From a bacterium (GTDB taxonomy: Bacteria > UBP15 > UBA6099 > JAJRTR01): a DNA stretch of 64,000 bases. Where the stretch lies: positions 11,651 through 75,650 of the forward strand of contig JAJRTR010000135.1 in NCBI GenBank assembly GCA_024278215.1, read 5' to 3'. The translations under genes and the position numbers were made by a program. The notes under the pieces were generated by a model that was not told the origin of the DNA, ran no database searches, and was given only the letters and a program-made list of their open reading frames with translations. Below are positions 26,334 to 57,586 of this stretch, one piece after another (position 1 is the stretch's first letter; every line of letters begins with the position of its first letter).

Positions 26334-26344
26334 CTAAAAGAGCC

Positions 26345-26962: not shown

Positions 26963-26968
26963 AAGCTT

Positions 26969-28650: not shown

Positions 28651-28701
28651 TTCCGGCTCTCTCATGCTTTCCGAGGAGCCGGATACATTAAATATATTAA
28701 G

Positions 28702-37100: not shown

Positions 37101-39131
37101 CTTGTCCTTCCCCTTTTTAGTTCGACCGCTTTTGTAGGAAAGGCCGAATGCGTTTTTGCTGCCGGTCGAGATAGAGTATGTGCTCTGTTCGTAGCGGACA
37201 TTGAATTTCCTGTCCTGGCGGATGGGTGTCTTGAAGTAGATATCCCCGGTCTCGTAAAGAACAGAGTATTCGCCGGGCGGGATGATCTCACCGGTGTCGG
37301 GGTAATATATCTGGACCGAGCCGGGCGCCATGAAAGCATTAGCGCGGTAAGGGCCGATGTCGCCGTCGCCGTCGAGCTGCACTTCACCGGTCTGTGAGCG
37401 GGACTCCGCCATGAGAGCCTGGAAAGTGAAATGTCCGAAGTCATAACCGAACTCGAGTCCGTTGATTTCCTTCTTGAGGTTGATCCTGCTCGTGCCGGTG
37501 AAAGTCGTTGTGAAATCGCCGAAGTGGACCCGCCCGTCGCTGCCCAGCATCTCGATGTCCAGGTGTTGCGAGGCGCCCGGTGATTTCCTCATTGTCCCGT
37601 CGACTCTGATGCCGTTCTTGAAGCTACCGTCGAGAAACACGTTCCAGTTCTGTTGCAGCTTGTATTTCGCGATGGAAACGTCTTCCTGCTTGTTGAGGCT
37701 GCTGAGAAAAGCTTTTCGCACCTCGCGCTCGCGGATGATCTGGAAAGCGATGCTGCCGGTCATCCTGAAGTCGCCGGCGCAAAGCTGCGGCGGTAGCGAC
37801 TGGTCGCAGCCGTTGTGTTTGGGCTCGATTGTCACAAGCGCGTTCTTTATCAACTGCTTCGAACTCGAGTCGACGGGCAGATATGCTTCTTCAAGTGTTA
37901 CCGGGATGTTCGCACCGGTTTTTATTCCCTTGAAAATCAGCGGAACCACTGTGAGGGGATACTTAAGGCCGGAGAGGTCTTTGGTAAAGTCGCCCAGCAG
38001 GCTCAGCCGTATCTCGCCCTTGCGGTTGTCGACTATATTTGAACCTTCACCGAACGAGTCGTTGTATAAAACAGAGGTCGTCTGTATGCCCCGCGCCGCA
38101 CGGACGGCTTCGCGGTATTCCGCGAGCAGCTTTTCCGCCTCTTTCTTTTTCCCATCCATTTCCACTTCGGTAATTTCAACATTCAGGTTCTTCGCAAGCT
38201 TTTTCAGTTCTCCAAGAGACATGTCGTCGACGCTTTTGACTATATTGACACTGTTGGACGGTATTCCCAGGTTGTTGGTATACACGAGATGCGCCGGATC
38301 ATATTTGATCCGCACGTCGATGCCGTCGAGCGAACGGTATTCCGGGAACTTGTAGATAACAAGATCGAGCCGCACCCACTGGTTGAGGCCGATGACGGCA
38401 TTCTGTTTCGAGAATCCTACGATGACGTCGGCGTCTTCTTCTTTTTCGGCTGTTTCCATCTTTGTGAAACCCAGCGACATCGCCATGGCGTCGGTGTCCT
38501 GTTTGCGGGCCTTCTGTATTTTGTATTTGTTTTCGAGCGAGCCGGTGGTAAGCAAAGTGTTTTCGCCGGCGACCGCTGCCATCAGCAGGGGGTCCATCTC
38601 GAGGCCGTCGTAGCCCACTACCTTGAAATAGCCGGGGTTCGACGGAGAAGTCTTCCCGTCGGCGTTCCGGGCGAACGAGGTGAAACTGATATATGTGGAA
38701 CCGGTTTTCTTCATCCTGAACGGAACTTTGATGAAAATCTGCTTCTCCGTAATCGGCTGTCTTGCAAACGCTTTGAATGTGACGATCCCTTTATCGGTAT
38801 CGACTCTGAAGCGCTCGACCAACTCGAAAACCGGGTCGGCGGCGTAGTAGCTCCTGTCTTTGAAAAGCTCGATGTACGCGGGATCGACTGTCAGTGTACA
38901 CTGTCCGCCGGTGAGTTTGTCGCCCTCCTGCGGCATGATATATATATCGAAGTACGACGTTTCATCGACAGGAACGGCAGCACCGTTTTCGGAAGTGATC
39001 CGGAACTGTGCGGCCTGCACGCAGACAATGCAGCCTGCCGCCATGATAAAAGCGAAAAATAATATGCGGAAGCACAGACCGACAGCCGGTGACGGGACGC
39101 CCGTTATGGTTCTGTACGTTCTTTCAGACAT
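34149..39131 (-). CDS. giant secreted/outer-membrane-associated protein (1660 aa); C-terminal region beta-barrel-like; function unknown
   Basis: N-terminal signal or anchor (LCFRILFFAFIMAAGCIVCVQA). The C-terminal ~600 aa are rich in alternating T/K/N/Y/F beta-strand patterns (...NYGFGFTYSVSSRTNFNLDFKK...). Internal Cys pairs are present. The start overlaps the rsmI 3' end by 28 bp; an alternative GTG start lies at 39098. Confidence 0.5.
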   Translation of the reverse strand: MSERTYRTITGVPSPAVGLCFRILFFAFIMAAGCIVCVQAAQFRITSENGAAVPVDETSYFDIYIMPQEGDKLTGGQCTLTVDPAYIELFKDRSYYAADPVFELVERFRVDTDKGIVTFKAFARQPITEKQIFIKVPFRMKKTGSTYISFTSFARNADGKTSPSNPGYFKVVGYDGLEMDPLLMAAVAGENTLLTTGSLENKYKIQKARKQDTDAMAMSLGFTKMETAEKEEDADVIVGFSKQNAVIGLNQWVRLDLVIYKFPEYRSLDGIDVRIKYDPAHLVYTNNLGIPSNSVNIVKSVDDMSLGELKKLAKNLNVEITEVEMDGKKKEAEKLLAEYREAVRAARGIQTTSVLYNDSFGEGSNIVDNRKGEIRLSLLGDFTKDLSGLKYPLTVVPLIFKGIKTGANIPVTLEEAYLPVDSSSKQLIKNALVTIEPKHNGCDQSLPPQLCAGDFRMTGSIAFQIIREREVRKAFLSSLNKQEDVSIAKYKLQQNWNVFLDGSFKNGIRVDGTMRKSPGASQHLDIEMLGSDGRVHFGDFTTTFTGTSRINLKKEINGLEFGYDFGHFTFQALMAESRSQTGEVQLDGDGDIGPYRANAFMAPGSVQIYYPDTGEIIPPGEYSVLYETGDIYFKTPIRQDRKFNVRYEQSTYSISTGSKNAFGLSYKSGRTKKGKDKYKINTAYMLSMAPSGSTRSIFSDSKVFNLDTQVNVEPADCPGYTATNTCVRVNLGNPYILEGSVKVISGATRYTPTSNPETVILGHRSLFSGQIYILYDNGDEDVKNIGLKGSVTIEFSYYNPNIIVEDVVQVLKFVDADTTEGGLPSDMLPGSELVYLSDTQDETAELDNLPLVCFEGKTGDKDDAGLCPGIRPDLDQQEGITYYIETSGDTDYIKFSKDVESNYYGNPTTETKYVLMSYYIAPPELDSGSKFTKTALGIDTHVNVSDNLSFDVQYTRTNSDLASEFTSAEETMIVDTDTRYRNYESKGEICEYVVPTGDIENATGRKLVCKLNNDNISGQGKVLVSMQFCERGQYICKDEDGNDYKCDDKDKAVSYEIYNADNRESDWYTFPCITDPSTGNYIYKSITHNLNTKTDPEFIGVDREQGNLVIYREFDEGEIGGKDMFLVKFGEAFPSEGDRISVSYIYDEVLSEVVDGDAVVLKNSYKYKGFKMNLEKRVIDPYFDTSMSGKVKGNSKETGYIKGDFSLKFLKNWTIGYLTDNSTKKSFSAGKTDSLIETYHKKHNISYSTGRPVWGIKSLSLVHDVKGDSGISGITSANTKLINNLTTNRDYGIKMDLRKLALAVDGGYKVTDIEKAQQVSADTTTVLKNLNLAFSPKSRRGFSLTSAFSRSNVKQTGSRTRKNVYNLSYKPIRYISLKLKFDKNTSRDNDLAETKIDEKNTYTVNLANMYNFTGIKLSFIRNKTSQQVAPTKTDTNTFNFTWNIRKNLKWTPTFTRKVNQTTAAWTKEKERKWTLKYTPRKSKMKLNISWDRTFKDKTTQNLVIPDSASVDTNPDDRNKFTVNLTPTKKIRTTSFYEDQNGSTQPYKYYKLTYNYNASAKAVLSGGYGVKKMVNYPTTEFDIKYAYKYKPGFRIKTNYSSKDQGGTTGVNSINYGFGFTYSVSSRTNFNLDFKKILAKSKSATTKPLEETSFTAGLKSRL

Positions 39132-42106: not shown

Positions 42107-42472
42107 TTAGTGGAGGGTGGAGCCCTCGGAGTGGAAACTGCCTATGGCAGCCTCTTCCGAGCCGAGTATGGGCAGAACTCTGTCGAGTTCGAGTACGGAA
42201 AACACGTTGAAGTTGCGCGGAGAAAGCCCCGTGACTTTCAAGCCGCCGTTGACCGGATTGATGAGTTTGAGGCCGTACATGAGCGAGCCGACACCGGTGC
42301 TGTCGATAAAATCTGTGTCCGCGAGGTTTACGACGATCTTCTGGTGGCCGAACCGGATCAGTGATTCGAGCTTCACTTTCAGAGAAGGAGCGGACTTAAC
42401 GTCCAGGTCTCCGGACACGTCGAGCACCACGACATTGCCGATATTTCGTTCATTTATTTTAAATTCCGACAT
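42107..42472 (-). CDS. STAS-domain anti-sigma-factor antagonist (SpoIIAA-like)
   Basis: VVVLDVSGDLDVKSAPSLKVKL...FIDSTGVGSL is the STAS fold, with a conserved Ser in the DST motif. 121 aa. Confidence 0.7.
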   Translation of the reverse strand: MSEFKINERNIGNVVVLDVSGDLDVKSAPSLKVKLESLIRFGHQKIVVNLADTDFIDSTGVGSLMYGLKLINPVNGGLKVTGLSPRNFNVFSVLELDRVLPILGSEEAAIGSFHSEGSTLH

Positions 42473-42586
42473 AAGAATATCTCACAAGATGATTTTATAC
42501 TGTGATTAGTATAAAGCTCTTCAGATTTTCTTGCAACAGTGGTAGACTAAAAATGATGTGAACGAAGAGATTCCAGGCGGTGATAT

Positions 42587-43003
42587 ATGGAATGCGGCGG
42601 CTGCGGAGCAAGAGTAAAAAATAATGGTGAAGAATGCAGCTCGTGCGGTTGCTATGTCACTACAAGTTTTTTCGGCAGGCGTCTGGATAAGTATTATTGG
42701 GTAAAGGCCGTCATGGATACTGTTGACTACCTGAACAGGCAGGAGCCCGCGATTCTTTTGAATCTCCATAAGAAGAGCAAGCGGGTTTTGATTGATTTGA
42801 GCGGAGTGAAGTTTATCGACAGCATGGGTATCGGAGAACTTGTGGCGTTGAGCGACAGGCAGGGTTATATGAACCAGGATATTCGCTTCGTGGTAGACAA
42901 CGAAAGCGTGTACCGTTCGCTTGAATCTCTAGGGCTGCTGCATGTGCTCGATGTTCATAAATCGGTGGAAGAAGTGCTCGGGGTATGGGATATTGGCAAA
43001 TAG
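42587..43003 (+). CDS. STAS-domain protein with N-terminal Cys-rich (zinc-ribbon-like) extension
   Basis: MECGGCGARVKNNGEECSSCGC (CxxC...CxxC) then ...VLIDLSGVKFIDSMGIGELV (STAS core). 138 aa. Divergent to the other STAS gene. Confidence 0.6.
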   Translation: MECGGCGARVKNNGEECSSCGCYVTTSFFGRRLDKYYWVKAVMDTVDYLNRQEPAILLNLHKKSKRVLIDLSGVKFIDSMGIGELVALSDRQGYMNQDIRFVVDNESVYRSLESLGLLHVLDVHKSVEEVLGVWDIGK

Positions 43004-44564
43004 CGCGCCCGCCTGGAAAAAGTTGTTGTATCTTGCGGCGGCGCCGTTTTCGGGCATGTTGTTGACTTTTTGTTTTTCCCCTTACGACCACTATTGTATA
43101 GCATGGGCGGCGCTTGTGCCGCTGCTGCTGTCGCTTCGGGGGGCGAGCCCGGCGGGTGCTGCGCTCAGGGGCTATCTGTTCGGTGCGGCGTATCTGGGCT
43201 CCCTTTTCTGGTGGTTTTCTGTTTGCAGGTATCCCGCCGTGCTGGGTTTTTTCGCGTTCACGGCACTGATTCCGATAATATTCATACCGTGGGCGTGGCT
43301 TACGAACAGGTTGCTGCGCGGCAGGCGCGGGTGGCTGTGGATATGGTTGCCCGTGTGTTTCTGGGTGGCAATCGAGTGGTTCATGTCGCAGGGTACATTC
43401 GCGTTTCCATGGTGGTCGCTGGGCAACACGCAGGCGCGGAATCTCGTTGTGGCGCAGGCGGCATCGCTCGGCGGTTCATATCTCATTTCTTTTATGATTC
43501 TGTTGTTCAACTTTTTCCTCTATGCGTGTCTCGCCGGGCGTGTGAAAGAGAACCGTGCGACATGGGTGGCGGCGGGTATCATTATCGCTGTTCTCGTGGT
43601 CAGAGGCGCTGTTATACTCGGCGGAAGCGGCAGTGGAGCGGGAAAAAGCACGTCGGAGAAACCTGTTTCCGTGGCGCTCATACAACCAAGCTACGAGCAG
43701 GATGAAAAGGAAGACGGCAGCACGATGCCCGATATATACCGGACGCATATCGAGATGACGGACGAGGCGGTCGAAAAGTACGAACCGGACATTGTCGTGT
43801 GGTCCGAATCCGTAACATATCTTAACTGGCTTACCGACGGCTACAACTACAAAAATACAATGGATTATCTGCGCAACAGAGACATCATGCTGCTGACGGG
43901 CGCTTATGAATTCGCCGGCGACGCGATGTACAACGCGGTAGTCGCTATCGATCCCGAGAAAGGCGTTATCAATAAATACCGGAAGATGCAGCTTGTGCCC
44001 TTCGGCGAGATGGTGCCGTACAGAAAACAGATCGAGAGGCTGAGCCCGGCGCTGGGCAGGTGGGTGAATAAGACGATATACGAGCATGATGTGGGCGCGG
44101 GCAAAGAGTACACGATATTTAAAAGCAGATATGGAGATTTCGCAGTGATTGTGTGCTTCGAGTCGGTGATCCCCGCGATACCGCGCAGGATGGTGCAGCT
44201 TGGCGCGCAGTATATATTCATTGTTACAAATGATGCATGGTTTCTGAAGACGCCCGGCGCATATCAGCACGCGCAACTGGCGGCGATGCGTGCTGTCGAG
44301 ACCCGGCGCTATGTCGTGCAGGCGGCGAACAGCGGCGTGTCGGTTTTCATCGACCCCTACGGTCGCGTGATCTCGGAAACGCCGGTGTTCGAGAAGATGA
44401 TACTCTATGGTAAAGTGCGTCCGATGAGCGTTATCACGTTCTATACACGCTATGGCGATGTATTTGCGGTCGGATGCCTGATTTTCTGCGCGTTTTGCTT
44501 CTGTTTTTTCGGCTGTCGCAGGGTTTTGAGCAGGAGAAGACCACTACCCGGAATATCTCGATAA
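42942..44564 (+). CDS. lnt: apolipoprotein N-acyltransferase Lnt
   Basis: A multi-transmembrane N-terminal domain followed by a C-terminal CN-hydrolase domain (VALIQPSYEQDEK...VVWSESV...VICFESVIP, catalytic E-K-C). The start is uncertain: the ATG at 42942 overlaps the upstream STAS gene by 62 bp. An in-frame TTG at 43023 lies just beyond the STAS stop. Confidence 0.75.
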   Translation: MCSMFINRWKKCSGYGILANSAPAWKKLLYLAAAPFSGMLLTFCFSPYDHYCIAWAALVPLLLSLRGASPAGAALRGYLFGAAYLGSLFWWFSVCRYPAVLGFFAFTALIPIIFIPWAWLTNRLLRGRRGWLWIWLPVCFWVAIEWFMSQGTFAFPWWSLGNTQARNLVVAQAASLGGSYLISFMILLFNFFLYACLAGRVKENRATWVAAGIIIAVLVVRGAVILGGSGSGAGKSTSEKPVSVALIQPSYEQDEKEDGSTMPDIYRTHIEMTDEAVEKYEPDIVVWSESVTYLNWLTDGYNYKNTMDYLRNRDIMLLTGAYEFAGDAMYNAVVAIDPEKGVINKYRKMQLVPFGEMVPYRKQIERLSPALGRWVNKTIYEHDVGAGKEYTIFKSRYGDFAVIVCFESVIPAIPRRMVQLGAQYIFIVTNDAWFLKTPGAYQHAQLAAMRAVETRRYVVQAANSGVSVFIDPYGRVISETPVFEKMILYGKVRPMSVITFYTRYGDVFAVGCLIFCAFCFCFFGCRRVLSRRRPLPGISR

Positions 44565-44571
44565 TACGTTC

Positions 44572-44859
44572 TCACAAAGTGCCGTCTGTTGCGCGTTGTT
44601 CGAGCCGGTATATGAAAGCGAGCACTTCGGCGACTGCCTGGTAAAGTTCATAGGGAACGGCGTCGCCGAGGTCGAGCCTGACGAGCATCTCGACCAGATT
44701 GCGGTCTTCGTAGAGCGGGACGTCGTGTTCCTGCGCCAGCTCGATGATGCGTTCGGCGATCATCCCTTTGCCGCTTGCCACTACGTGCGGGGCGACGTCC
44801 TGCTCCATGTCGTATTCGAGGGCCGCGGCTTTTTTATGTTTGTATTGTTCGTCTGCCAT
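44572..44859 (-). CDS. FlhB/YscU C-terminal-domain-like small protein (YlqH-like)
   Basis: KKAAALEYDMEQDVAPHVVASGKGMIAERIIELAQEHDVPLYEDRNLVEMLVRL...VPYELYQAVAEVLAFIYRL matches the autocleaving C-terminal domain of FlhB/EscU (the NPTH motif is replaced). 95 aa. Confidence 0.65.
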   Translation of the reverse strand: MADEQYKHKKAAALEYDMEQDVAPHVVASGKGMIAERIIELAQEHDVPLYEDRNLVEMLVRLDLGDAVPYELYQAVAEVLAFIYRLEQRATDGTL

Positions 44860-44860
44860 A

Positions 44861-46951
44861 TCAGATTCTCAAGTCGACCGATGCGAGGGTTTTCGCCGCC
44901 CGCACGACCGGCTTCGCTCCGGATGCGGATTTCCTGCGCCTCACTTTCACCCCGACTTTGTTCTGTTCATAAGCTGTTCTTGAAAGAGCTGCGCGCAACT
45001 CGTCGAGATGTTTCTGAATGAACTCTTTCCGGCGCACGTCCTGCACCTCGATATTGAGTTCGATACCCTTGTTTTTATATGTCTGGAAAGTGAACATGGA
45101 AAGGCCGAGAAAATCCGTGTCCAGAACAAGCACGAGGCGGGCGTCGAAGGGATCGAGCGGTTTCGCGTTTTTATTCTTCCTCTGGTTGTCGTCTTCCCTG
45201 CGGTAGATGTTGAGTTTGCCGATGTGGAGCTTGTCGCCGATTTTGTAAGGGAAGAAGGTGACCATCGACTCGATGGGGGTGGCGGCTGTGTGCTGGACGA
45301 CATTGGCGAAGTTGGCGAACTGAAGACCGCGGGCGAGAGTGTGTGCCGACTGTGTGGCCTGATCGCTGCCCGCGTGCGAAGTCAGCATACGGCCAAGCGC
45401 GGCGCGAAGGTCCTGCGTTTCCGTGAAGTTTTTCAGCATGGCGCTCAGGTCCTGCTGGAACTGTGAGTTCCGGAATATTGTTCTGATGCGATCGAGGAGC
45501 GCGCTGCTGTCGGGGTCGGCGGCGAGTTTTTGGAGTCCGTCATCGCCCTGCGCGAGTGCCTCGAGCGCCATTTTCGCCCACTGGTTCGACGCTTCGGAGA
45601 AGTCCTTCATCGGCCGGCTGCCGGCCTTGTTGAACTCGAAGGCGTCGAGCGCAGCGAGACTGGAAAGCAGCGCGAATATTTCCGCTTTCAATGCCGCCGG
45701 GTTCTGTGTCGCCGCGCTGTCGCCGGCAAGTTGGATAATATTGTTGAAACTATCGACGGCGGCGGCGATGTTTTTCGGCAAGGCCGAAAGCGGCGGGTCG
45801 TTTAACGTGGGAACGGCAGATTGTCCGGTCGGCAGAATTGCGGACTCGACCGGCGGGGGCAGCACAGTGACAGGGGGCGGAGGCGCCTGCCTGCCTGTGT
45901 CGGGGGCTGTATCCACCCTTGCAGAATCCGCCGGCGCTTCGCCGCCCATCATATTACGGAGAGTAAGAAGGACCGCCGAGCGCAGGTTCCGGAACCTGGC
46001 GGACGCGCCGGTGCTATCGAGTGCCTGCCGCGCGGCCTGAAGGAAATCCGCGCGCTGCCTGTCGAGAGTGCCGGACTGAAGCTGCATGTCTTCAATCTGC
46101 TGGAGCATGGTGTTGATTTCAGACCCAATGCCTGCGGCCTGCGCCTGGGGCGGCGTGGTGTCGGGGATTATTTTCAAGAGCGACAGGAGTTGATCCATTA
46201 AGCCGCTTTTTGTCTGGCCACCTTCCGATTCTGCGATTCCGAGCGTTATTATCGCCTCGAAACGTGCTTCGGTCGAATGTGTGAATGCGTTGACAAAAGC
46301 GGGCAGTTTTTCGATGATGTCCGTCACGCTGGAAATATCAGGCGGCGGCACACCTGCCTTTGCAGCTACATCCGCACCCTGTTTGATATTCTGCGGCAGT
46401 GCGTCGAGTTCCTGCTTCATCTGCGGGATCAGGCTGATAATCTCTCGCGAGAGAGGCAGTTCCTCTTTGACCATGGCGGCGGCGAAATCTATTGTCTGTT
46501 GCGATGCGTTTGCAGGAAGCGCGTCGATCATCACCGCAATGTTGCCGCGAGTGACCGGCACACCGATATTCAGCAGCGAGCGCGCCATAGCGATCTGCTG
46601 CGGATGCTCGGGCAGATCGAATCCTATGAGGCGCGAGGAAATCATCCCGTCTGTCAGAGGCCTGACGGTCTGTGTGCTGATCTCGCGCGAGCTTATGATC
46701 TGGAGTTGCAGTTTGCCGTTCTGCTCGTGGCCTTTTACGGTCAGCGAGAGTTCGGAATTTCGCTTGAGGGGTACTTCTGATTCGGCAGTGACGATGCGAC
46801 CGTCGATCTCGAGAAGCGCTTTGCCGCCGGAGAAGTCGATCACCTTTGCATTATACGTATGGTGCATCTGGTCTCCGCCGCCCTTGACCGTCGGAAACTC
46901 GGCGGCGTTTGCGGAGAGACTCACTGCTGAATAATCACTGAAAGCTATCAT
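44861..46951 (-). CDS. FliK-like protein (hook-length-control-type C-terminal 'Flg_hook' domain), orphan
   Basis: The C-terminus ...ARLVLVLDTDFLGLSMFTFQTYKNKGIELNIEVQDVRRKEFIQKHLDELRAAL follows the FliK C-terminal pattern. The N-terminal two-thirds are low-complexity and Ala/Gln/Pro-rich, like FliK. No other flagellar genes are present. 696 aa. Confidence 0.45.
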   Translation of the reverse strand: MIAFSDYSAVSLSANAAEFPTVKGGGDQMHHTYNAKVIDFSGGKALLEIDGRIVTAESEVPLKRNSELSLTVKGHEQNGKLQLQIISSREISTQTVRPLTDGMISSRLIGFDLPEHPQQIAMARSLLNIGVPVTRGNIAVMIDALPANASQQTIDFAAAMVKEELPLSREIISLIPQMKQELDALPQNIKQGADVAAKAGVPPPDISSVTDIIEKLPAFVNAFTHSTEARFEAIITLGIAESEGGQTKSGLMDQLLSLLKIIPDTTPPQAQAAGIGSEINTMLQQIEDMQLQSGTLDRQRADFLQAARQALDSTGASARFRNLRSAVLLTLRNMMGGEAPADSARVDTAPDTGRQAPPPPVTVLPPPVESAILPTGQSAVPTLNDPPLSALPKNIAAAVDSFNNIIQLAGDSAATQNPAALKAEIFALLSSLAALDAFEFNKAGSRPMKDFSEASNQWAKMALEALAQGDDGLQKLAADPDSSALLDRIRTIFRNSQFQQDLSAMLKNFTETQDLRAALGRMLTSHAGSDQATQSAHTLARGLQFANFANVVQHTAATPIESMVTFFPYKIGDKLHIGKLNIYRREDDNQRKNKNAKPLDPFDARLVLVLDTDFLGLSMFTFQTYKNKGIELNIEVQDVRRKEFIQKHLDELRAALSRTAYEQNKVGVKVRRRKSASGAKPVVRAAKTLASVDLRI

Positions 46952-47469
46952 TTTACTTATCCTGAATCGAAGTTGATTGTTAAGTATTGGTCAAGACCTT
47001 ATCACGCTGTAAGCGTCGACATGTTGGCACCGAAAATATCATTCAACAGAAGGGTGTCTCCGGCATTCTCTTCTAAATTCCCAGTATGGAAAACAACTTC
47101 ATTGCTGCAAAAAAACTTGTGAACTCATTGATCGTAATACCACAACTTTGAATTTCATATCAACATCCCTGACGCATATTTCACCATTGCGTGTGAGAAA
47201 CCAATCCTGTATAAATTATAACTTAACTTGTGCGTTTTTGAATTTTCAATCAGATTTTCCGGTGCATTACCGGAATTTTCCATTGAATTCCGAATCGTGT
47301 TTTTACGGTAAGAAAACCGGTCGGACGTGTTGCACATCCCCTATACATATATAACGGCAAATATCGAAGGATACTTAATTTAAATGGAATAAAGGCCCCG
47401 GGGGGGTGTGGCAGGGTCTCTATAGTGTGACCCTGCATGTGAATTGTCCGGGTGTTGCTGGAGGCGTCA

Positions 47470-47850
47470 TCAGTCCAGTGTGCTGCCGATGATTTCCCTG
47501 ACCTTTGCGATGAGTTCGTCGGGTTCGATGGGTTTGTCGAATACGGCGACCGCGCCGCTGACGGCGAGGTCGCGACCCGCGAGACCACTGATGATGATGA
47601 CCGGCGTATTCTTGAAATCTTTATTCTTCATAAGCGCTCGAAAAAAACGTGTGCCGGTCTCGTTGGGCATCTCGAGGTCGAGCGTTATCAGGTCGGGCTT
47701 GCAGTCGTCGAGCAATCGTTGCGCTATTTCGCCGTCCGCGGCGACACACGTGTCATAATCGTGGTTCTCGAAAAGCGTCTGGAGGAAAATCCTTACATCC
47801 TCTTCGTCGTCAACAATCAATATCGTTTTTTTTCTGTCTTCATCCGTCAT
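47470..47850 (-). CDS. single-domain response regulator (CheY-like receiver)
   Basis: ILIVDDEED...DLITLDLEMP...VIIISG...FDKP has all canonical receiver residues. An RBS AAGGAGA lies 7 nt upstream of the ATG at 47850. The ORF-track start at 47904 lacks an RBS. Confidence 0.8.
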   Translation of the reverse strand: MTDEDRKKTILIVDDEEDVRIFLQTLFENHDYDTCVAADGEIAQRLLDDCKPDLITLDLEMPNETGTRFFRALMKNKDFKNTPVIIISGLAGRDLAVSGAVAVFDKPIEPDELIAKVREIIGSTLD

Positions 47851-48073
47851 GACATCTTCTCCTTGTCGAATGTATCCTGTAGCGCAAACCGGGCGCAGGG
47901 ACATGGCGCGCGTCTTCTAATGTTCGAGTGTCGTATCGTCATTATCGAACAGAAACCTGAAAAAATACACGAAAGAGATCAGAAATATCACTCCGAGCAG
48001 GTATTCTATTCCCTTTGTGTGATAGAAAAACTCCTGTAGCGTATACATTTATCGAATGTCCTTCCGGTTGATG

Positions 48074-49276
48074 TTAGTTCGCCTGCGCCGGAGCTGTATG
48101 CGTGTCGGCGCGGGCGCGATGCGCGGCTTCCAGGTCGTCTGTGAGGATGGGCATCCGGTTGACGATCCACCTGAAGGCGAGTATGCCGATTGTGACGAGC
48201 ATCATAGAGATCATGATCTCGCCGAAACTCGGGAAATAGCGTTCCGCCGCGGGCAGTTTCCAGTTGAATGCTATTATACTGATATTGAAGCGGTTCAGGA
48301 CGATGCCGAGAATAGCGATAACACTCGTGACTTTGACCAGCGTCGCGTTTTCGGTCCGCGCGCCCACGGCGTAAAGGATGCAGGGCAGCAGGATGAAGCC
48401 GAGCATCTCGACGAGGAACCAGTAGCCGTAGGGCGTGTCGAGCAGGTCCCAGTGGTTGCCGTGCGCCACGCCGAGTACTTTTATGCCGAAGTATCCGAAC
48501 ATCATGAGTGAGGCGGCCTTTGCCAGCCCGACGACGATCCTGTCGTGGTTGAAGTGTTCGCCCCTGCTGATAATATTCTTAAAAACATTGTGAGACAGCG
48601 TCGACTCGAAAATCACCATCGAAAGCCCCGCGATTATGCTCGATATGAAGAAGTAAACAGGGATATAGGGCGAGTACCAGAGCGGGTGAATCTTGTCCGG
48701 GGCGATAAGAAACATGGAGCCGAGCGACGACTGGTGCAGTGTGGAAAGCACGACACCGAGAATGGTCAGCGCGAGTGTCATCTTTATGAACAGCCTGTGC
48801 AGCGCGGTCCATTTCAGCCAGGCGAACACGCTGGGCACGAATTCGAGGAACAGCACTGTCAGGTACAGCCCCACGCAGGCCGCCACTTCGAACATAACGG
48901 ATGTGTAGCCGTGCGAAACGAGGAACGGATAAGGCATTCGCCAGGGTCGCCCGACATCGAAGACGAGCCCGACGGCCACAAGGAAATAGCCGAGGAAACC
49001 GGTGAGTATCGCTGGCCTGACTACGGGATGATATTCCTTCATGCCGAAGATGTATACAATGGTGGAGATCGTGTAGCCGCCCGCCGCGAGCGCGACACCG
49101 CACAATACGTCGAACCCGATCCATATACCGAACGGATTGTTATCTGTAAGGTTGGTCACAGCGCCGAGGCCGCCGGTGAAGCGCATGATGGTGAAATAGC
49201 CGCCTATCGCGAGTATTACGCCCGCGATTATATTGAACGGTGTGAATATCGGTGCTTTTGTTTCGTTCATTTCCAC
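48074..49276 (-). CDS. NrfD/PsrC-family integral membrane quinone-interacting subunit (HmcC/DsrP-like)
   Basis: 400 aa with about 10 transmembrane segments and an NrfD-type topology. Adjacent to a Tat-exported 4Fe-4S protein gene. Confidence 0.7.
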   Translation of the reverse strand: MEMNETKAPIFTPFNIIAGVILAIGGYFTIMRFTGGLGAVTNLTDNNPFGIWIGFDVLCGVALAAGGYTISTIVYIFGMKEYHPVVRPAILTGFLGYFLVAVGLVFDVGRPWRMPYPFLVSHGYTSVMFEVAACVGLYLTVLFLEFVPSVFAWLKWTALHRLFIKMTLALTILGVVLSTLHQSSLGSMFLIAPDKIHPLWYSPYIPVYFFISSIIAGLSMVIFESTLSHNVFKNIISRGEHFNHDRIVVGLAKAASLMMFGYFGIKVLGVAHGNHWDLLDTPYGYWFLVEMLGFILLPCILYAVGARTENATLVKVTSVIAILGIVLNRFNISIIAFNWKLPAAERYFPSFGEIMISMMLVTIGILAFRWIVNRMPILTDDLEAAHRARADTHTAPAQAN

Positions 49277-49349
49277 TCCTTCTCAGGTGAGCCGGCGACC
49301 GGGTTATGTTCTGCCGCGTCCGTCCGCGACCGGCCCGGTCGATCTCATG

Positions 49350-50423
49350 TTATTCGCCGCCCTTTTCATCGCCGGTATCCGCCGCCTTTTCAAGGGCTTC
49401 CTTCACTGCCGCCTGTATAGCTCTCTTCTGGTCTCTTTCGGCCTTTTTCTGTGCTTTCTTAAGCGCGACGGCCTGCGCCTTATCGGCCCTGGCCTGCACA
49501 TCGGTCGTCGTCTCGGCAATCGCGGTCGATACAGCGTTCCGGCGCTCTTCCTCGGCTATCTGCCTGCGGCGGTTCGACATGTAATATATGCCGCCAAGCA
49601 ACACCGGCCACAGCATCACGATTACCGGAACGGACGCGAGCGCGCCTTTCGTATACTTCGGATACGGCGTTCGCGCGTAATCCGTCGACATATCCACCTG
49701 GTCGAACGGCACGGGCGACAGGTACATCCAGCTTGTGCCGCCCACTTCGAATTCTCCGTATACGTGGTCGATATATTTATCCGGGTTATCCATGATTCGT
49801 TTCTTCGCGATCTTCAGCAGGTCCGACCGTTTGCCGAAGGTGATAGCTTCCATCGGGCAGGCCTCGGCGCAGGCGGGCGCGCCGCCCTCTCCCATTATCT
49901 TGTCGTAGCACATCGTGCATTTCATGACACGCGGTGTCAGCGGTTCGTCATATTCGTAGGCCGGTATGTAAAACGGGCAGGACACGATGCAGTAGCGGCA
50001 GCCGACACACAGGCTTGCGTCGTACACGACCGGTCCCTCTTTCGTCTTCTTGAGCGCCATTACAAAACAGGCCGACACGCAGGCAGGCTCGTTGCAATGG
50101 TTGCACTGTATCTTCCTGAACACCGGCTTCCCGTTTTCAGTAGCGTATTTGTTGACGACAGTGTACGCCTTCGCGGTCGTCCTGCGTTTCGTTTCGAGGA
50201 CGGACAGATCGTTGAACGGAACATCCGGCGCGGGCAGCTTGTTCTGCTTGTTGCACGCCGCTTCGCAGGTGCGGCAGCCGACGCAGCGGCTGAGGTCTGT
50301 CAGCATACCATAGCGGTCCGGGTATCCGTCGAAGTTTTCTGCGGCAAGCAGCTTGTCGGCGCCGGCAACTGTGCCCGCGCCCGCCGTCAGCGCCCCGAGG
50401 AAATTTCTGCGTGAGATACTCAT
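49350..50423 (-). CDS. Tat-exported 4Fe-4S ferredoxin-type iron-sulfur subunit with C-terminal TM anchor (HybA/HmcB/DsrO-like)
   Basis: Twin-arginine signal SRRNFLGAL. Four ferredoxin-type clusters of Cys (CVGCRTCEAAC, CNHCNEPACVSAC, CVGCRYCIVSCP, CTMC...C). A C-terminal transmembrane segment and a charged tail. Confidence 0.75.
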   Translation of the reverse strand: MSISRRNFLGALTAGAGTVAGADKLLAAENFDGYPDRYGMLTDLSRCVGCRTCEAACNKQNKLPAPDVPFNDLSVLETKRRTTAKAYTVVNKYATENGKPVFRKIQCNHCNEPACVSACFVMALKKTKEGPVVYDASLCVGCRYCIVSCPFYIPAYEYDEPLTPRVMKCTMCYDKIMGEGGAPACAEACPMEAITFGKRSDLLKIAKKRIMDNPDKYIDHVYGEFEVGGTSWMYLSPVPFDQVDMSTDYARTPYPKYTKGALASVPVIVMLWPVLLGGIYYMSNRRRQIAEEERRNAVSTAIAETTTDVQARADKAQAVALKKAQKKAERDQKRAIQAAVKEALEKAADTGDEKGGE

Positions 50424-50581
50424 TTATTCTCCTCCACCGGTTTCCCTTGTACTCCCGGTTACTCTCTTGAGCCGATTGCATTATTCCGTCCATCATCGGT
50501 CGGCTGCAATCAGCCATCCTGCGTATTCCTGCTGTATATTCGACTCCACATTCGAGTCGGCCTGCTTATTCATTCGACCGT

Positions 50582-52093
50582 TCATTTCGGCAAAGGCGAA
50601 TCTTTATCTTTGTGACATTCGCCGCAATCGCTCTTGTCGCTGATACCCATCTCCTCATGGCAACCTATGCACTTGAGATGGAACGCGCCCCGCAGGCCCG
50701 GCCTGTCGGCGGGCAGGGCGTCAAACGGTCCCGAGTGGCATTTCGCGCATGTCGGCGTCGTATCACCCGGCGGGCTGTTGTGGTGGCACGATTGGCATAT
50801 CACCGGCCTGTCGCCGTGGAACACGTTCGACATTTTATCGTCGCGCGCTATTTCGCTGAGTTTCCGCACTACCTGCAAGTGCGGGAACGACACCGGCTGC
50901 AACTGGTCGGCGGCCGAATCTATCATTATTGTTTCAGGCAGATCGTCAGGAATCCGCGCCACCGGATTGTGCAGGGGCCGCGCGACAAGCTGGTTGTCGA
51001 CCGGCCCTGTATGGCAGACGTCGCACGACAATTCCGCGGGACCCGCGGGCAACGTGTCGTGGCAGCCTGCGCACTTTTCCTGTTTCTTCACCTTTTCGTG
51101 GCAACCCACGCAACTGCGCGGCGAGGCGGAGTCGTGGTATGCGTCCGTAAGGATGACACCGCCGCCCTCTTCGCTCGGTTTGGACGTATGGCACTCGTCG
51201 CAGGCTTCCAGCTTTTCATGGTGACACGCCCGGCAGTTGACCGCCACCTGTTCGTGTGCCTTATGATTGAACGGCACCGCCGGAAATGTCTTGTCCGCGA
51301 CTTCGATCAGCGGCATATCCTTCTGGCCCCTGTCGAGACGCGGTACATCGCTCATGTCGGCCAGCAGAGAAGTGAAAGACGGCATGTCGTGGCAGCCCGC
51401 GCAATCGGTCGGCCCGGCGGGTTTGCCCTTTTCGCTCTCGTTCACGTGGCACGTCACACATTTCTCATGCGCCGCGGTCCTAAGCGAGACGATCTCCTTC
51501 GAGCCGTCGCGATCGTGACAGTCGCGACACGAAGACTCGGCGCCCTTTATATACACCAGCTCTTTAGTGGCGGGGTCCTGCTTGTGGTGACATACGCTGC
51601 AATCTTTGTCGAAAGCCTCGACATGCTTGTTGTGCTGCCTCATGTCGAGTTCTATGGGATTAAACTTTTTTTGCGTGTAGCGGCCCGGCCTCAAGTGACA
51701 TTCGCCGCACTGGTCGACCGGCCCACTGCCTTTCTCTTCGGGGCAGCCGATGCACTTATCGTGATACTCTTTTTCATATTCCGCCTTATCGCCGCCTTCC
51801 GCCGGAGTGTATACCTTTAATATCAGGTATCCGTTTTCCCCGGTCGCGTGGCAGGTGGCGCAGCCGTCTTCCTTCGCCGCCCGTTCGCGGTGCGCGGGGT
51901 GGTCGAATGCCACAGGAGCGCGTTCGGCCACGCCCATGCCGGCGGGCATCTCGATTGTCAGCAAACGCTTCGCTTCCTCGCCGGCGGTCCCGCGCTCCCC
52001 GCCCCGGACGTTCACGATCAGGCCGGTCAGAACAAGCGCCGTAAACGCAATTAAGAGAATCACACCCGCTGCATCTGATATTTTGTTTCCCAT
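50582..52093 (-). CDS. multiheme c-type cytochrome, ~15-16 hemes (HmcA-like)
   Basis: N-terminal transmembrane segment or signal. I count 15 CxxCH motifs (CATCH, CGECH, CSVCH, CRDCH, CVTCH, CAGCH, CRACH, CDECH, CVGCH, CAGCH, CDVCH, CQSCH, CAKCH, CIGCH, CGECH) plus one CxxCP variant. Confidence 0.85.
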   Translation of the reverse strand: MGNKISDAAGVILLIAFTALVLTGLIVNVRGGERGTAGEEAKRLLTIEMPAGMGVAERAPVAFDHPAHRERAAKEDGCATCHATGENGYLILKVYTPAEGGDKAEYEKEYHDKCIGCPEEKGSGPVDQCGECHLRPGRYTQKKFNPIELDMRQHNKHVEAFDKDCSVCHHKQDPATKELVYIKGAESSCRDCHDRDGSKEIVSLRTAAHEKCVTCHVNESEKGKPAGPTDCAGCHDMPSFTSLLADMSDVPRLDRGQKDMPLIEVADKTFPAVPFNHKAHEQVAVNCRACHHEKLEACDECHTSKPSEEGGGVILTDAYHDSASPRSCVGCHEKVKKQEKCAGCHDTLPAGPAELSCDVCHTGPVDNQLVARPLHNPVARIPDDLPETIMIDSAADQLQPVSFPHLQVVRKLSEIARDDKMSNVFHGDRPVICQSCHHNSPPGDTTPTCAKCHSGPFDALPADRPGLRGAFHLKCIGCHEEMGISDKSDCGECHKDKDSPLPK

Positions 52094-52148
52094 ATTCAGT
52101 TCCCTTGGTTTCCGTTAAATGTTCTCAATCCTTCTCCGGCACCTGTTT

Positions 52149-53492
52149 TCAATCGCCGCCCGGTCTCAGGTGTTCCGGTATCTCCATGCACCCCTCGTCT
52201 ACAAGCAGTTCGCTGATGAACTTCACATGTGTGCCGGGCGCGTATTCCTTAATAATGTCTTCGATGCCGCTGTGGCAGTTGTGGCAGGGGGTCACGACCA
52301 CCTCGGCCCCGGTCGCGTTTATCTGGTCGCCTTTGGTCCTGTTGGCGACTACCCTGTTTCTCGTCCAGGGCGGGCCGCAGTTGATGACCCCGCCGCCCGC
52401 GCCGCAACAGTAGTTATGCTCGAATCTCGGGTTCATGTCCCTGAAATCCTCGCACAGCCAGTTCATCAGGTCGCGCAGCTTGCCGCCCAGCCCCCGGCCG
52501 CGCACCGTGTTGCAGGGGTCCTGCACTGTGACGGGCTTTTTGAACTTTTTAACGATCTTGATCTTTCCGCTTGTTATCAGGTCGTGGTAGAACTCGATCG
52601 CGTGAATCACCGGCACAGCCGGATACGCCTGACCGATATGCCTTGGGCCGTCGTACACCGCGCCGCGGAATGCGTGCCCGCACTCGCCCATGACGATCTT
52701 TTTGACTTTCAGGCGCATCGCCGTCTCGTGGTGCAGCCGCTCGAGGCGACCGCTCGACTCGAAGTCGCCCGAGTACATCGCCATGTTGCTGTTGTCCCAG
52801 CCGTCGGTGGCGGGCATCGTCCAGTCCAGGCCGGCCACGGCGAATATCACCGCCGCGTTCGCCAGCAACTGCGCCAGTATCTTCGGCTCCGGCGCAATGA
52901 CCGAGTACATTATGTCCGCGCCTTCCTTCTCCAGTGGTATCCGCGCCGTCTTCACCACTTTCTGCGCGTCTTCCTCCTGCCACTGAAGCGTGTCGATCCA
53001 CTCGTCCTGCTGCACCCACATCTGGTTATAGGTGACCGAGTGGCTGTTTGTCGTATCCTGAAGGTACATCGGCACCACGCCCAGCATGCTGCATATCCGC
53101 CGCACGACCATCAACAGGTATGCTATGTCAATGCCGAACGGACAGTACATGCTGCACCTGCGGCAGCCGCCACACTCGATATACGCTATGCGCGCGGCCA
53201 GCTTCATGAACTCCGGCGACACTTTGCAGTCTTTCTTGAATATCTCCACAAGCGTGTCTTTCACCTTGGCGACCGGAGCATACTTCGGGTCCATATCGTG
53301 CGAGATGCACTGGTGGCACGCTGTCGCGCACAGGCCGCAATGCACGCACGTGTCCATGTAGACCTTGAGGCGCGCGCCGCATTCCTTGTCCAGCGCAAAC
53401 CGAATCGTCTCCTTGATCTTCTCCGGAGTAAGTTTCTTTATCGATTCATCAAGACCATCGTCTTTAACTTCGGGCCTCGGTTCGTATTTCAT
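52149..53492 (-). CDS. HdrD-like Fe-S protein with two [4Fe-4S] ferredoxin motifs and CCG domains (HmcF/DsrK/TmcB-like)
   Basis: CVHCGLCATAC and CGGCRRCSMYCP ferredoxin motifs. The C-terminal Cys-rich CCG-type motifs are CGHAFRG, DPCNTVRG, NYCCGAGGG and PCHNCH. Cytoplasmic, no signal peptide. Confidence 0.7.
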   Translation of the reverse strand: MKYEPRPEVKDDGLDESIKKLTPEKIKETIRFALDKECGARLKVYMDTCVHCGLCATACHQCISHDMDPKYAPVAKVKDTLVEIFKKDCKVSPEFMKLAARIAYIECGGCRRCSMYCPFGIDIAYLLMVVRRICSMLGVVPMYLQDTTNSHSVTYNQMWVQQDEWIDTLQWQEEDAQKVVKTARIPLEKEGADIMYSVIAPEPKILAQLLANAAVIFAVAGLDWTMPATDGWDNSNMAMYSGDFESSGRLERLHHETAMRLKVKKIVMGECGHAFRGAVYDGPRHIGQAYPAVPVIHAIEFYHDLITSGKIKIVKKFKKPVTVQDPCNTVRGRGLGGKLRDLMNWLCEDFRDMNPRFEHNYCCGAGGGVINCGPPWTRNRVVANRTKGDQINATGAEVVVTPCHNCHSGIEDIIKEYAPGTHVKFISELLVDEGCMEIPEHLRPGGD

Positions 53493-53525
53493 TGTGTTTT
53501 CTCCTTATTGTCGCTCCTGAATTTG

Positions 53526-54161
53526 TCACCAGTCTCTCGCGTTCCGGACGAAACCGAATTCGCAGGCCATATATGCACGGGTGAACACGAAATAGAGCAT
53601 GTGCGCAATTCGCGTGAAGGGGATCATCATCAGCATCAGGCAGCCCGACAGCATGTGTATTGTGATTACCGTGCCGTAGTCGAACCACTGGTGATAGGCC
53701 AGAAACCCGGTGATATAAGGAAGCGTGACAAACAGCAACAGCGCGTAGTCGGCCGCCGATGTGACATTCTTCACATAAGGCACAAGTATCCGCCGCTGGA
53801 GAAAATATACACCGCCGACGATTACTATTACCGTCATCAGGTCCGCAAGCCGGCCGGGCAGCGTTGGGAACTGTATGCCCCATATCTTCCAGTGAGCCGC
53901 CAGCAGCAGCGGCGTCGCTATCAGGCATATATGGAACAGAAACGCATACGCCGTCATAACCGGGTTGATCCTCATACCCCTGGTGCCGTAAGGCAGCAGC
54001 CAGTGTTTGAGCGACCGCAGACTGAAGCTCAGCCGCATATACGGCATTATCACTTTTTCCTGTTTCGCCGCCTTTATCATCGCTGTTATTTTGTAGACGC
54101 TGCCCGCGATCATCACGAAGAAGGCTATCCAGACTAAAGGCCCGCTGATAAAATCCTGCAT
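53526..54161 (-). CDS. membrane di-heme cytochrome b, NarI/HdrE-like (HmcE/DsrM-like)
   Basis: 211 aa, 5-6 transmembrane segments, conserved His in TM2 and TM5. Directly upstream of and co-directional with the HdrD-like gene. Confidence 0.6.
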   Translation of the reverse strand: MQDFISGPLVWIAFFVMIAGSVYKITAMIKAAKQEKVIMPYMRLSFSLRSLKHWLLPYGTRGMRINPVMTAYAFLFHICLIATPLLLAAHWKIWGIQFPTLPGRLADLMTVIVIVGGVYFLQRRILVPYVKNVTSAADYALLLFVTLPYITGFLAYHQWFDYGTVITIHMLSGCLMLMMIPFTRIAHMLYFVFTRAYMACEFGFVRNARDW

Positions 54162-56524: not shown

Positions 56525-57586
56525 TTATCTGTTATATTTATAGAGGTCTTCCTGGGTCATGTCGGGGGGAAGGTTCTTTATTCCCCAGTCTCTGCCGTCG
56601 TCGAAGTTCTCGATCACTCTTTTCCAGTTGGATTTTCCGTGACTGTCAAGCGTCATCTTATATCTGCGGCTCTTCATCGTCGAGTTCACCAGCTTATAGA
56701 ATGCCATATCTTCCATGGAAATATCGTTTGCACTTAGTGAACTCGACTTCTTCATCCACTTTTTGAGAGCGTTGTACTCTTCTTCGGTGCAACCGTAGAG
56801 ACAGTCCTTTTTGTCCATCGCACTCGCTATTTCAGGGTTTGCTTTCTTCCATCTCGTCATCTTTGTTTCCATCGCCACCGCATCCGTCACCTTCAACTCT
56901 GTGAGGATATCGATCCCCTTGTATCTGACCTCGATTTTCCTGACCAGCACAGGTGACAACTGCACCATTTTATATAGAGCGTCCTCGAGGAACCTGTTGA
57001 ACTGGTCCTGGTAGTCGGACATGAAGATCGGGATGGGCACCGGCATTACGCCGATGTAGAACCTGTCGAGATAGAGGTATGGTCTTTGTTCTTTGTCGAT
57101 CCAGTAGGCGTTGAGGACAAAGGTGAAAGAAACGGTTCCCGCGTCTTTGTCGGCGGGTGTGAGCCGGTCGATATTTTCTTTCAGTTCGTAGCCCGCGAAT
57201 TTGTTGCTGATCATCTTCAGGGCCGTTGCAAAAGGCACGTCCACGCGAAAAACAAGATTCCCCTTGTTGACGAAAAGATACGGATATTTGAAGAGAGGCG
57301 CGCCCCCTACCGTCAGGTTGTCTACCAGCAACTTGTTTATCCAGGCGTTGATCTCGATTTCACTTATGCTGAATATGCCGACATTCACTGTTTTTCGCGT
57401 GTCTTCGACGAAACGGTTGAACTTCTCTTTCAGGTGCTCGCGGGCGACGGGGTATACTTCTTCCCTTATCTCGGCTCTCACGATGTACGGCGGCGGCATT
57501 GTGCTCATGGCGATATATATGCCCGCGAATCCGAAGAATAAGAGTACGGACAGGCAGCCGAACATTTTGAAGCTGAGTTTGATCAT
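56525..57586 (-). CDS. hypothetical membrane-anchored protein (353 aa)
   Basis: N-terminal transmembrane segment (LSVLLFFGFAGIYIAM), Lys-rich, AT-richer codon usage than neighbours. No recognisable motif. Confidence 0.4.
   Translation of the reverse strand: MIKLSFKMFGCLSVLLFFGFAGIYIAMSTMPPPYIVRAEIREEVYPVAREHLKEKFNRFVEDTRKTVNVGIFSISEIEINAWINKLLVDNLTVGGAPLFKYPYLFVNKGNLVFRVDVPFATALKMISNKFAGYELKENIDRLTPADKDAGTVSFTFVLNAYWIDKEQRPYLYLDRFYIGVMPVPIPIFMSDYQDQFNRFLEDALYKMVQLSPVLVRKIEVRYKGIDILTELKVTDAVAMETKMTRWKKANPEIASAMDKKDCLYGCTEEEYNALKKWMKKSSSLSANDISMEDMAFYKLVNSTMKSRRYKMTLDSHGKSNWKRVIENFDDGRDWGIKNLPPDMTQEDLYKYNR

Follow-up and report, generated by a model that had tools for sequence, protein, structure and literature searches.

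The locus raises the question of why two genes resembling the partners of the flagellar export switch should stand together in a stretch of bacterial DNA that holds no other flagellar gene. The window, meaning the whole 64-kb stretch of DNA that was analysed, carries on its reverse strand a gene for a 696-aa protein (44861..46951(-), defined by its open reading frame and its homologues), followed by a gene for a 95-aa protein (44572..44859(-), assigned by Pfam, NCBIfam and alignment to FlhB), both exactly where the original prediction had placed them. That prediction regarded them as an orphan pair, one FliK-like and the other FlhB-like, with stop and start codons 2 bp apart. At the junction, which reads TGAtATG (44857..44863(-)), the stop codon of the large gene and the flhX start codon are parted by a single nucleotide, a spacing that makes translational coupling of the two genes likely. 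In known systems, the T3S4 domain of FliK, YscP and PscP contacts FlhB_C or SctU_C, and export thereby switches from the early substrates of rod and hook to the late ones of the filament, while FlhB_CC is the C-terminal piece of FlhB that is left after autocleavage at the NPTH motif.

The 95-aa protein matches Pfam Bac_export_2 with E=5.6e-20 (72.3 bits, cutoff 24.4), a match confined to profile positions 262-335 of 335, and it aligns with residues 274-352 of Salmonella FlhB (E=4e-14, phmmer against the PDB), with its own start lying some 4 residues ahead of the counterpart of FlhB S274. Neither the NPTH motif nor a transmembrane region is present in it. Full-length FlhB/SctU proteins, such as YscU and EscU, share the FlhB_CC subdomain with this protein, but it lacks their four transmembrane helices, linker, CN subdomain and NPTH and is not a member of their family. 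Its closest likeness is to FlhX (H. pylori HP1575), YlqH and NCBIfam TIGR00789, the 'FlhB-like flagellar biosynthesis protein', which are likewise stand-alone proteins of about 90 aa with homology to FlhB past NPTH only. Against the TIGR00789 profile ('flhB_rel'), 81 of 84 positions were aligned at 114 bits, 3 bits short of the trusted cutoff of 117.35; apart from this shortfall and its origin in an uncultured lineage, the window protein is undistinguished from that family. In total, 452 FlhX homologues were found, and among the 120 listed the lengths range from 85 to 126 aa and NP[TE]H occurs in none (0/120). Identity to the window FlhX is 65-83% among its relatives and 59-68% for the members from Lysinibacillus, Desulfobacter-like and Synergistetes genomes. 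Judged by its sequence, the protein is a FlhX/YlqH-type, stand-alone homologue of FlhB_CC, the subdomain past the cleavage site, and it is predicted not to autocleave because it has no NPTH and no membrane domain. Of the original description as the autocleaving domain of FlhB/YscU, the homology to the FlhB C-terminus, recovered through Bac_export_2, is retained, and the autocleavage has to be given up, since the protein starts past the NPTH site.

The 696-aa protein is very divergent in sequence. Of the two domain models named as checks in the original prediction, Bac_export_2 recognized the smaller protein, and Flg_hook did not directly recognize the larger one (14.4 bits, E=0.034, at aa 625-672; cutoff 29.8), the relation emerging from profile-profile comparison instead. 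Seven close, full-length homologues (33-39% identity by BLASTP, 33-42% in alignment A1) were retrieved when 5.8 billion protein clusters were searched through a word index, and an exhaustive profile search of 1.84 billion proteins yielded 192 relatives, 15 of them at E<=1e-30. Ninety members were sampled from these 192 as family A2, 75 of which match Flg_hook at E<=1e-3. When A1 was compared with A2 by hhalign, the two were aligned with 100% probability (E=3.7e-43) in both the N and C domains. A2 was in turn aligned with a 703-aa YlqG-like protein of Lysinibacillus at 99.2% probability; the window-family profile matched this single sequence weakly (E=0.028), and the broader A2 profile was required. 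This indirect evidence supports the assignment of the 696-aa protein as FliK2/YlqG-like, with a FliK-like C-terminus.

Three regions are distinguished within the large protein. The N-terminal domain (aa ~27-190; 46382..46873(-)), delimited by alignment A1, AF2 and profile comparison, is the conserved block of A1; in the model, a small beta-barrel (aa 32-90) leads into helices, with pLDDT of 70-82 across aa 30-90. This domain is common to FliK2/YlqG-like proteins, some of which match Pfam DUF6240; it aligns with A2 and with the Lysinibacillus protein, and most distant matches in the search of 1.84 billion proteins fall in this region. The variable central region (aa ~191-544; 45320..46381(-)), marked by gaps in A1 and low pLDDT, is helical and rich in Ala, Gln and Pro, and a stretch around aa 350-390 is Pro-rich; its conservation is low, and it was not aligned with A2 by hhalign. 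It represents an insertion relative to shorter family members, and because of these ~350 residues the window protein is longer than most members, which have 400-550 aa. A comparable central insertion is found in the Lysinibacillus YlqG-like protein.

The third region is the predicted core of a T3S4-type substrate-specificity-switch domain (aa ~562-670; 44942..45268(-)), located by AF2, Foldseek and profile evidence. The C-domain model, generated by AF2 from a 49-sequence alignment (A3), has a mean pLDDT of 82.9 and the topology strand-strand-strand-strand-strand-helix-helix-strand. In Foldseek comparison with the PDB, its best match is the SS domain of PscP (5CUK; probability 1.00, rmsd 2.0 A, 68 columns), with FliK-C (2RRL) at probability 0.85, and 2RRL FliK is also the top match of the A3 profile among PDB sequences (E=0.0013). 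According to this model, the C-terminal domain has the T3S4 fold, and the FliK-type C-terminus proposed from the sequence pattern is borne out by the profile-profile comparison, the 2RRL profile match and the fold matches. A full-length AF2 model (pLDDT 55), for which Foldseek returned meaningless helical-bundle and GPCR matches, was discarded; similarly, the full-length family profile gave only spurious coiled-coil-type matches among PDB sequences, and the C-domain-only profile recovered FliK. The FliK, YscP and PscP rulers (2RRL, 5CUK) share with the window protein the C-domain fold, the core 'L..T..LG' motif and a long linker ahead of the T3S4 domain. Unlike FliK, the window protein has an N-domain predicted to be a folded beta-barrel with no detectable relation to FliK-N, and its gene has flhX as a partner and does not lie amid hook genes.

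The pairing itself is strict. In every retrieved locus holding a relative, a FlhX ORF follows the large gene, with the genes overlapping or a few nucleotides apart, the exception being L009, in which tblastn coordinates indicate a gap of ~200 nt. The pair is linked to a flagellar cluster (flgF-flgK or flgF-flgG) in three relatives and to a che cluster in a fourth. In L003, it is divergent from flgF-G-A-H-I-J-flgN-flgK-flagellin; the arrangement in L020-L022, beside the flgF-flgK cluster, is that of L003, and the large protein there has 689 aa and 28% identity to the window protein over its full length. L010 shows the order FliK-like, FlhX, flgF, flgG, sigma factor, and in L004 the pair adjoins cheR/D/Y/X/B. 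No flagellar neighbours are present at the loci of the close relatives L001, L008, L009 and L013, and in three genomes (Desulfobacter-like, Lysinibacillus and Synergistetes) the pair lies amid housekeeping genes. The Lysinibacillus locus has the B. subtilis-type order rnhB, 703-aa gene, FlhX, sucCD, dprA, topA, so that the parallel with ylqG/ylqH drawn in the original prediction was well chosen: such a pair is carried there, its large member being the protein matched to the family at 99.2% probability above.

The pair is not novel in kind but of a known, published type, to which fliK2-flhX of Pseudomonas putida and ylqG-ylqH of Bacillales belong. In P. putida, fliK2-flhX constitutes a FliA-dependent operon that is sometimes unlinked from the flagellar cluster, the ORF having been designated fliK2 by the authors, who describe the physiological role of FlhX as not well understood and note that FlhX of H. 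pylori takes over FlhB function in part (bioRxiv 10.1101/2021.08.29.457346). The 'flhX-fliK' of Nitratiruptor is likewise unlinked, with the neighbour of flhX called plain 'fliK' (PMC9321776), and comparative studies treat FlhX as a flagellar export component (PMC10746217, PMC9321776). Wand et al. 2006 is among the references cited in PMC3040844. The window protein is alike to FliK2 (P. putida PP_4328) and YlqG-like proteins in gene order, tight coupling, N-domain and Flg_hook/T3S4 C-domain, but differs from most of them in its greater length, its strong divergence and a score below the Flg_hook threshold. Because pairs of this type are often found apart from other flagellar genes, the lone placement here is ordinary, and the term 'orphan' does not suit a pair that is published, that is placed among housekeeping genes in three genomes and that is linked to flagellar or che genes in four relatives.

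As for the surroundings, Pfam scans of ~50 ORFs detected no flagellar, chemotaxis or injectisome genes in the 64-kb window and found PilMNOPQ, of the type IV pilus, as its sole secretion or pilus machinery, in agreement with the original prediction on both the absence of flagellar and T3SS genes and the type IV pilus as the only secretion system. The window also encodes a GldAFG-like ABC system. For its PmbA, the closest matches with a named taxon come from Hydrogenedentes, Armatimonadota and Poribacteria at about 40-43% identity, while closer ones bear the label 'bacterium' alone, so that PmbA gave no usable taxonomic placement. Scans of GTDB representative genomes and JGI metagenomes yielded distant relatives only. 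Queries from relatives, comprising FlgF/G/A/H/I/J/K/N, a sigma factor and Che proteins, were run by tblastn against the window and other loci, and only a REC-domain similarity (47470-47904) and a glycosyltransferase (1476-2648) were matched; the latter, a Glyco_trans_1_2 protein, resembles one inside the flagellar clusters of relatives. The response regulator at 47470-47904 was also weighed as a possible partner but dismissed, since it ends an hmc-type operon, as rrf1 does in the Desulfovibrio hmc operon, and lies 518 bp away from the pair. The 518-bp AT-rich intergenic region that parts the pair from this operon and its response regulator (46952..47469(-)) is presumably the promoter/regulatory region of the pair. 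Within it lie small hairpins (47257-47292) and, at 47242..47215(-), a single sigma-70-like site, TTCAAA-16-TATAAT. By eye, no convincing match to a sigma-54 promoter or to a sigma-28 promoter (TAAA-N15-GCCGATAA, from which the lineage's own consensus may differ) was seen in these 518 bp.

The locus is probably a two-gene operon of the conserved FliK2/YlqG-FlhX/YlqH type that serves the flagellar type III export switch as an accessory module. Coupled translation would supply the large protein and FlhX in roughly 1:1 amounts, and the T3S4 domain would bind FlhX as FliK binds FlhB_C, allowing the pair to tune the specificity switch of a flagellar export gate or to back that switch up; the gate would be encoded in another part of the genome, where flagellar genes are likely to be present. 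FlhX may also occupy the FlhB_CC position in the manner of a 'spare part', as has been reported for HP1575 of H. pylori. We know of no experiment anywhere that demonstrates binding of FlhX to its FliK-like neighbour.

Other readings of the same genes were weighed against this one. It is unlikely that the large protein is FliK itself, the sole true hook-length ruler of the organism and not a second FliK-like paralogue, with FlhX as its dedicated partner; intermittent secretion would then measure the hook, the T3S4 domain would flip FlhB, and FlhX would serve as a cytoplasmic holder or decoy. The three parts of the protein are ruler-like (N-domain, long variable Pro/Gln-rich middle, C-terminal T3S4), the pair stands beside the rod genes flgF/flgG in L003, L020 and L010, and a second Flg_hook gene was not seen in the 20-kb views of these three loci. 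However, fliK is separate from ylqG in B. subtilis, and the N-terminus of Salmonella FliK is largely unfolded, differing from the structured beta-barrel predicted for the window protein. Naming in the literature points both ways, as the flhX neighbour in Nitratiruptor is simply 'fliK' (PMC9321776), whereas the designation fliK2 for the flhX-adjacent ORF of P. putida implies a separate fliK there (10.1101/2021.08.29.457346). The further suggestion that the 95-aa ORF is the remnant of a disrupted full-length flhB, a pseudogene whose adjacency is fortuitous, draws on its covering only the last ~80 residues of FlhB and deserves almost no credence. The ORF has its own ATG 1 nt past the upstream stop, the upstream ORF does not match the FlhB membrane domain in Pfam or NCBIfam, and the stand-alone homologues together with the pairing that recurs in every relative effectively refute it.

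The alternative of a source organism without a flagellum, in which the pair is a relic of a lost system or has been recruited to a non-flagellar role, such as a self-contained regulatory module using the FlhB_CC/T3S4 interaction, is improbable. It is favoured by 64 kb without a flagellar gene, by type IV pili and the GldAFG-like ABC system as alternative surface-motility gear, by the uncultured status of the lineage and by several close relatives whose loci also lack flagellar neighbours; in the opposite direction, related pairs are linked to flagellar clusters in three cases and to a che cluster in one, and even motile Lysinibacillus and Pseudomonas normally have the pair in isolation. The two ORFs, both intact, keep the invariant positions of the family, which, with the 65-83% identity of FlhX to its relatives, argues against decay. 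The resemblance of the Glyco_trans_1_2 protein to one in relatives' flagellar clusters also counts against a flagella-less organism, as does the family note of TIGR00789, which reportedly restricts members to species that also have FlhB. The narrower proposal that the lineage lost or never had flagella yet keeps the pair, the FlhB_CC-T3S4 interaction being re-used independently of any gate as a self-standing module that is regulatory or linked to another envelope machine, is very unlikely.

At present, the main gain from the result is in annotation. A 696-aa 'hypothetical' protein without an above-threshold Pfam match can be named a FliK2/YlqG-like T3S4-domain protein, and for its 95-aa neighbour the name FlhX can replace 'FlhB' and 'EscU/YscU family switch protein'. 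What the window contributes is a divergent example of the pair and no new principle, and the pair would gain interest only if the source genome proved to be flagella-less. Pairs of this type are very widespread, extending through Bacillales, Pseudomonas, Desulfobacterota, Synergistetes and uncultured lineages. The strict pairing of a FlhB_CC mimic with a T3S4-domain protein suggests the hypothesis that the two reproduce the FliK-FlhB switch contact as a copy in the cytoplasm.

The FliK-like gene (44861..46951, minus strand) encodes 696 aa and the FlhX-type gene directly downstream (44572..44859, minus strand) encodes 95 aa; both open reading frames lie exactly where the original prediction placed them, at the same sizes. 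The junction reads TGA-t-ATG, so that stop and start are separated by 1 nt rather than the 2 bp first described, and the two genes are apparently translationally coupled. The GC content of the pair is ordinary for the window. Upstream lies an AT-rich intergenic region of 518 bp (46952-47469) containing small overlapping inverted repeats, TTCCGGTGCATTACCGGAA at 47257-47275 and CGGAATT...AATTCCG at 47271-47292, possible sites of regulator binding or of termination of the upstream operon.

The 95-aa protein is a free-standing mimic of processed FlhB_CC, the part of FlhB that follows the NPTH site. It matches Pfam Bac_export_2 (E=5.6e-20, 72.3 bits) over profile positions 262-335 of 335 only, and its best NCBIfam model is TIGR00789, "flhB_rel, FlhB-like flagellar biosynthesis protein", with a score of 114 bits, slightly below the 117.35 cutoff and well above the scores of full-length FlhB/SctU models. 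Among PDB sequences, it aligns with Salmonella FlhB residues 274-352, which form chain B in structure 3B0Z of cleaved FlhB_C (E=4e-14), and therefore starts just after the NPTH cleavage site. These three matches bear out the predicted likeness to the FlhB C-terminus, while the description of the domain as autocleaving does not hold, as the protein begins past the cleavage site and the NP[TE]H motif is absent from it and from all 120 homologues listed (85-126 aa). A word-indexed search returned 452 FlhX homologues, named at source as "FlhB-like flagellar biosynthesis protein" or "EscU/YscU/HrcU family ... switch protein", from Desulfobacterales, Synergistetes, Lysinibacillus, Ureibacillus and many MAGs. 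That the ORF is a pseudogene fragment is effectively excluded.

The large protein reached only 14.4 bits against Pfam Flg_hook (E=0.034, aa 625-672; cutoff 29.8) and matched no NCBIfam model, and a search of 5.8 billion clusters yielded only 7 close homologues, at 33-39% identity. Their alignment with the window protein revealed conserved N-terminal (aa ~27-190) and C-terminal (aa ~545-672) domains flanking a variable, Ala/Gln/Pro-rich middle region. An exhaustive search of 1.84 billion representatives with this profile gave 192 matches at E<=1e-3, the distant ones being 400-900 aa long and usually aligned through the N-domain, the C-domain or both. Among 90 distant relatives, Pfam finds Flg_hook in 75, at best with E=8.5e-14, and DUF6240 in 10; hhalign joined the two alignments at 100% probability (E=3.7e-43) through both terminal domains, with the middle of the window family as an insertion. 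Among PDB sequences, the profile of a 49-sequence C-domain alignment matched best to 2RRL, the C-terminal domain of Salmonella FliK (E=0.0013), over the core 'LRLHPEELGQV...LRTQLAESGIQL'. The AF2 model built from the same alignment was confident (mean pLDDT 82.9), and its top Foldseek match in the PDB was 5CUK, the substrate-specificity-switch domain of PscP (prob 1.00, rmsd 2.0 A over 68 columns), with 2RRL also among the matches (prob 0.85). Because these five profile and fold tests agree, the FliK-type C-terminus recognized in the original prediction is correct despite the sub-threshold Pfam score.

An FlhX-type ORF directly follows the large gene in nearly every locus found through the large protein, in the close family and at the distant member P0021, and the same pairing appears when the search begins from FlhX homologues of named taxa. 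In CP070694.1, a complete Desulfobacter-like genome, flhX overlaps the gene of a 401-aa Flg_hook protein, and the two are flanked by genes for RecC and a UvrD-type helicase; in a Synergistetes MAG a 361-aa Flg_hook protein and flhX adjoin HD-domain, Mg-chelatase and dprA genes. The suggested parallel with ylqG/ylqH also stood: in Lysinibacillus the genes run rnhB, the gene of a 703-aa protein, flhX, sucC, sucD, dprA, topA, as around ylqG-ylqH in B. subtilis. This 703-aa protein, with no Pfam match on record, aligns with the distant relatives through both terminal domains (99.2% probability, E=6e-20) and, like the window protein, has a long central insertion. Among the same genomes, FlhX is 65-83% identical and its partner 28-42%, making FlhX by far the slower evolving; this is consistent with FlhX touching conserved parts of an export gate while the partner may make lineage-specific contacts.

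In P. putida the pair (PP_4328/PP_4329) is named fliK2-flhX. Transcription of that operon is FliA-dependent, in P. syringae and P. savastanoi the genes are unlinked from the flagellar cluster, and in H. pylori FlhX partially replaces FlhB function (citing Pallen 2005, Wand 2006 and Smith 2009); the same study stresses that the role of fliK2-flhX is not understood (10.1101/2021.08.29.457346). A Campylobacterota study lists "flhX-fliK" of Nitratiruptor among the few genes outside the flagellar cluster (PMC9321776), an Actinobacteria survey counts FlhX as a flagellar T3SS-associated protein (PMC10746217), and the reference list of PMC3040844 gives the title of Wand et al. as "HP1575 acts as a spare part...".

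Pfam scans of ~50 window ORFs found no flagellar, chemotaxis or injectisome genes, as had been predicted for flagellar and T3SS genes. The isolation of the pair was over-read as noteworthy, however: it is equally isolated in motile taxa, and isolation here therefore carries little weight. Contexts within the window protein's own family are mixed. In L003, on an 850-kb contig, the pair is divergent and adjoins flgF-flgG-flgA-flgH-flgI-flgJ-GT-flgN-flgK-flagellin; L020-L022 have a flagellar cluster as in L003, with an FlhX 70% identical to that of the window; the partner there has 689 aa and shares 28% identity with the window protein from end to end. In L004 the pair adjoins cheR-cheD-cheY-cheX-cheB, and in the distant L010 the order is FliK-like, FlhX, flgF, flgG, rod-binding protein, sigma factor. 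Only housekeeping neighbours occur in L001, L008, L009 and L013.

The scans identified PilMNOPQ, a REC-PilZ protein (5094-6290), a GldAFG-like ABC system, UbiB, two STAS proteins, Lnt, PmbA, YbeY and DgkA. Judged by PmbA, the closest relatives with a taxon name share only about 40% identity. The two STAS genes and lnt lie near the pair (42107-46951), comparable to the small STAS protein and CN_hydrolase-domain gene near the pair in L001 (6957-12417), the closest homologous locus (P0001); the likeness could be residual synteny or chance. An hmc-type redox operon of unusual order (47470-54161, minus strand) comprises genes for a nitrate-reductase-gamma-like membrane protein (53526-54161), a CCG/FeS protein (52149-53492), a multihaem cytochrome c3-family protein (50582-52093), a 4Fe-4S protein (49350-50423) and an NrfD-like protein (48074-49276), all on the minus strand, and ends in a single-domain response regulator (47470-47904, minus strand), which probably belongs to this operon and not to the pair. 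The pilM-pilN-pilO-(250-aa ORF)-pilQ cluster (21882-28174, minus strand), just downstream of a tRNA-Met (28701-28775), encodes a long secretin (966 aa), and its 250-aa ORF is presumably pilP. The GldA/GldF/GldG-like system (6788-11779, plus strand) consists of an ATPase, an ABC-2 permease and an unusually long ABC_transp_aux/DUF7088 protein (1084 aa); L020 and L021 have a similar ABC_transp_aux and DUF4340 set ~5 kb from the pair. A Glyco_trans_1_2/DUF3880 (CgeB-like) protein (1476-2648, plus strand) is 36-40% identical in its C-terminal half to the L003/L020 glycosyltransferase between flgJ and flgN, a faint hint that the source organism may glycosylate flagellin. Pfam matches are absent at E<=1e-5 from the 1660-aa ORF at 34149-39131 (minus strand), and none was found for ORFs 54311-55606 (431 aa), 56525-57586 (353 aa), 11784-12974 (396 aa) and 282-1061 (259 aa, signal-peptide-like N-terminus).

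Export specificity in flagella and injectisomes is switched when the ruler (FliK, YscP, PscP) touches the cleaved C-terminal domain of FlhB/SctU through its T3S4 domain, the substrate-specificity-switch domain. In the window, one operon holds the gene of a T3S4-domain protein together with that of a soluble protein resembling FlhB_CC. On the most economical reading, the two would bind each other in the cytoplasm as FliK binds FlhB_C, and FlhX may also dock at the FlhB_CC position, by analogy with the "spare part" behaviour in H. pylori. The pair would thereby buffer or time the change from early to late substrates at a flagellar export gate that we infer to be encoded elsewhere in the source genome, and action on that specificity switch is the likely role. 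A variant in which the large protein, with its FliK-type C-terminus, is the organism's only FliK seems unlikely. A non-flagellar or relic pair is somewhat less likely still. The pair is a divergent, elongated addition to the known FliK2/YlqG-FlhX/YlqH pair, and it would gain interest if the source genome proved to be without flagella.
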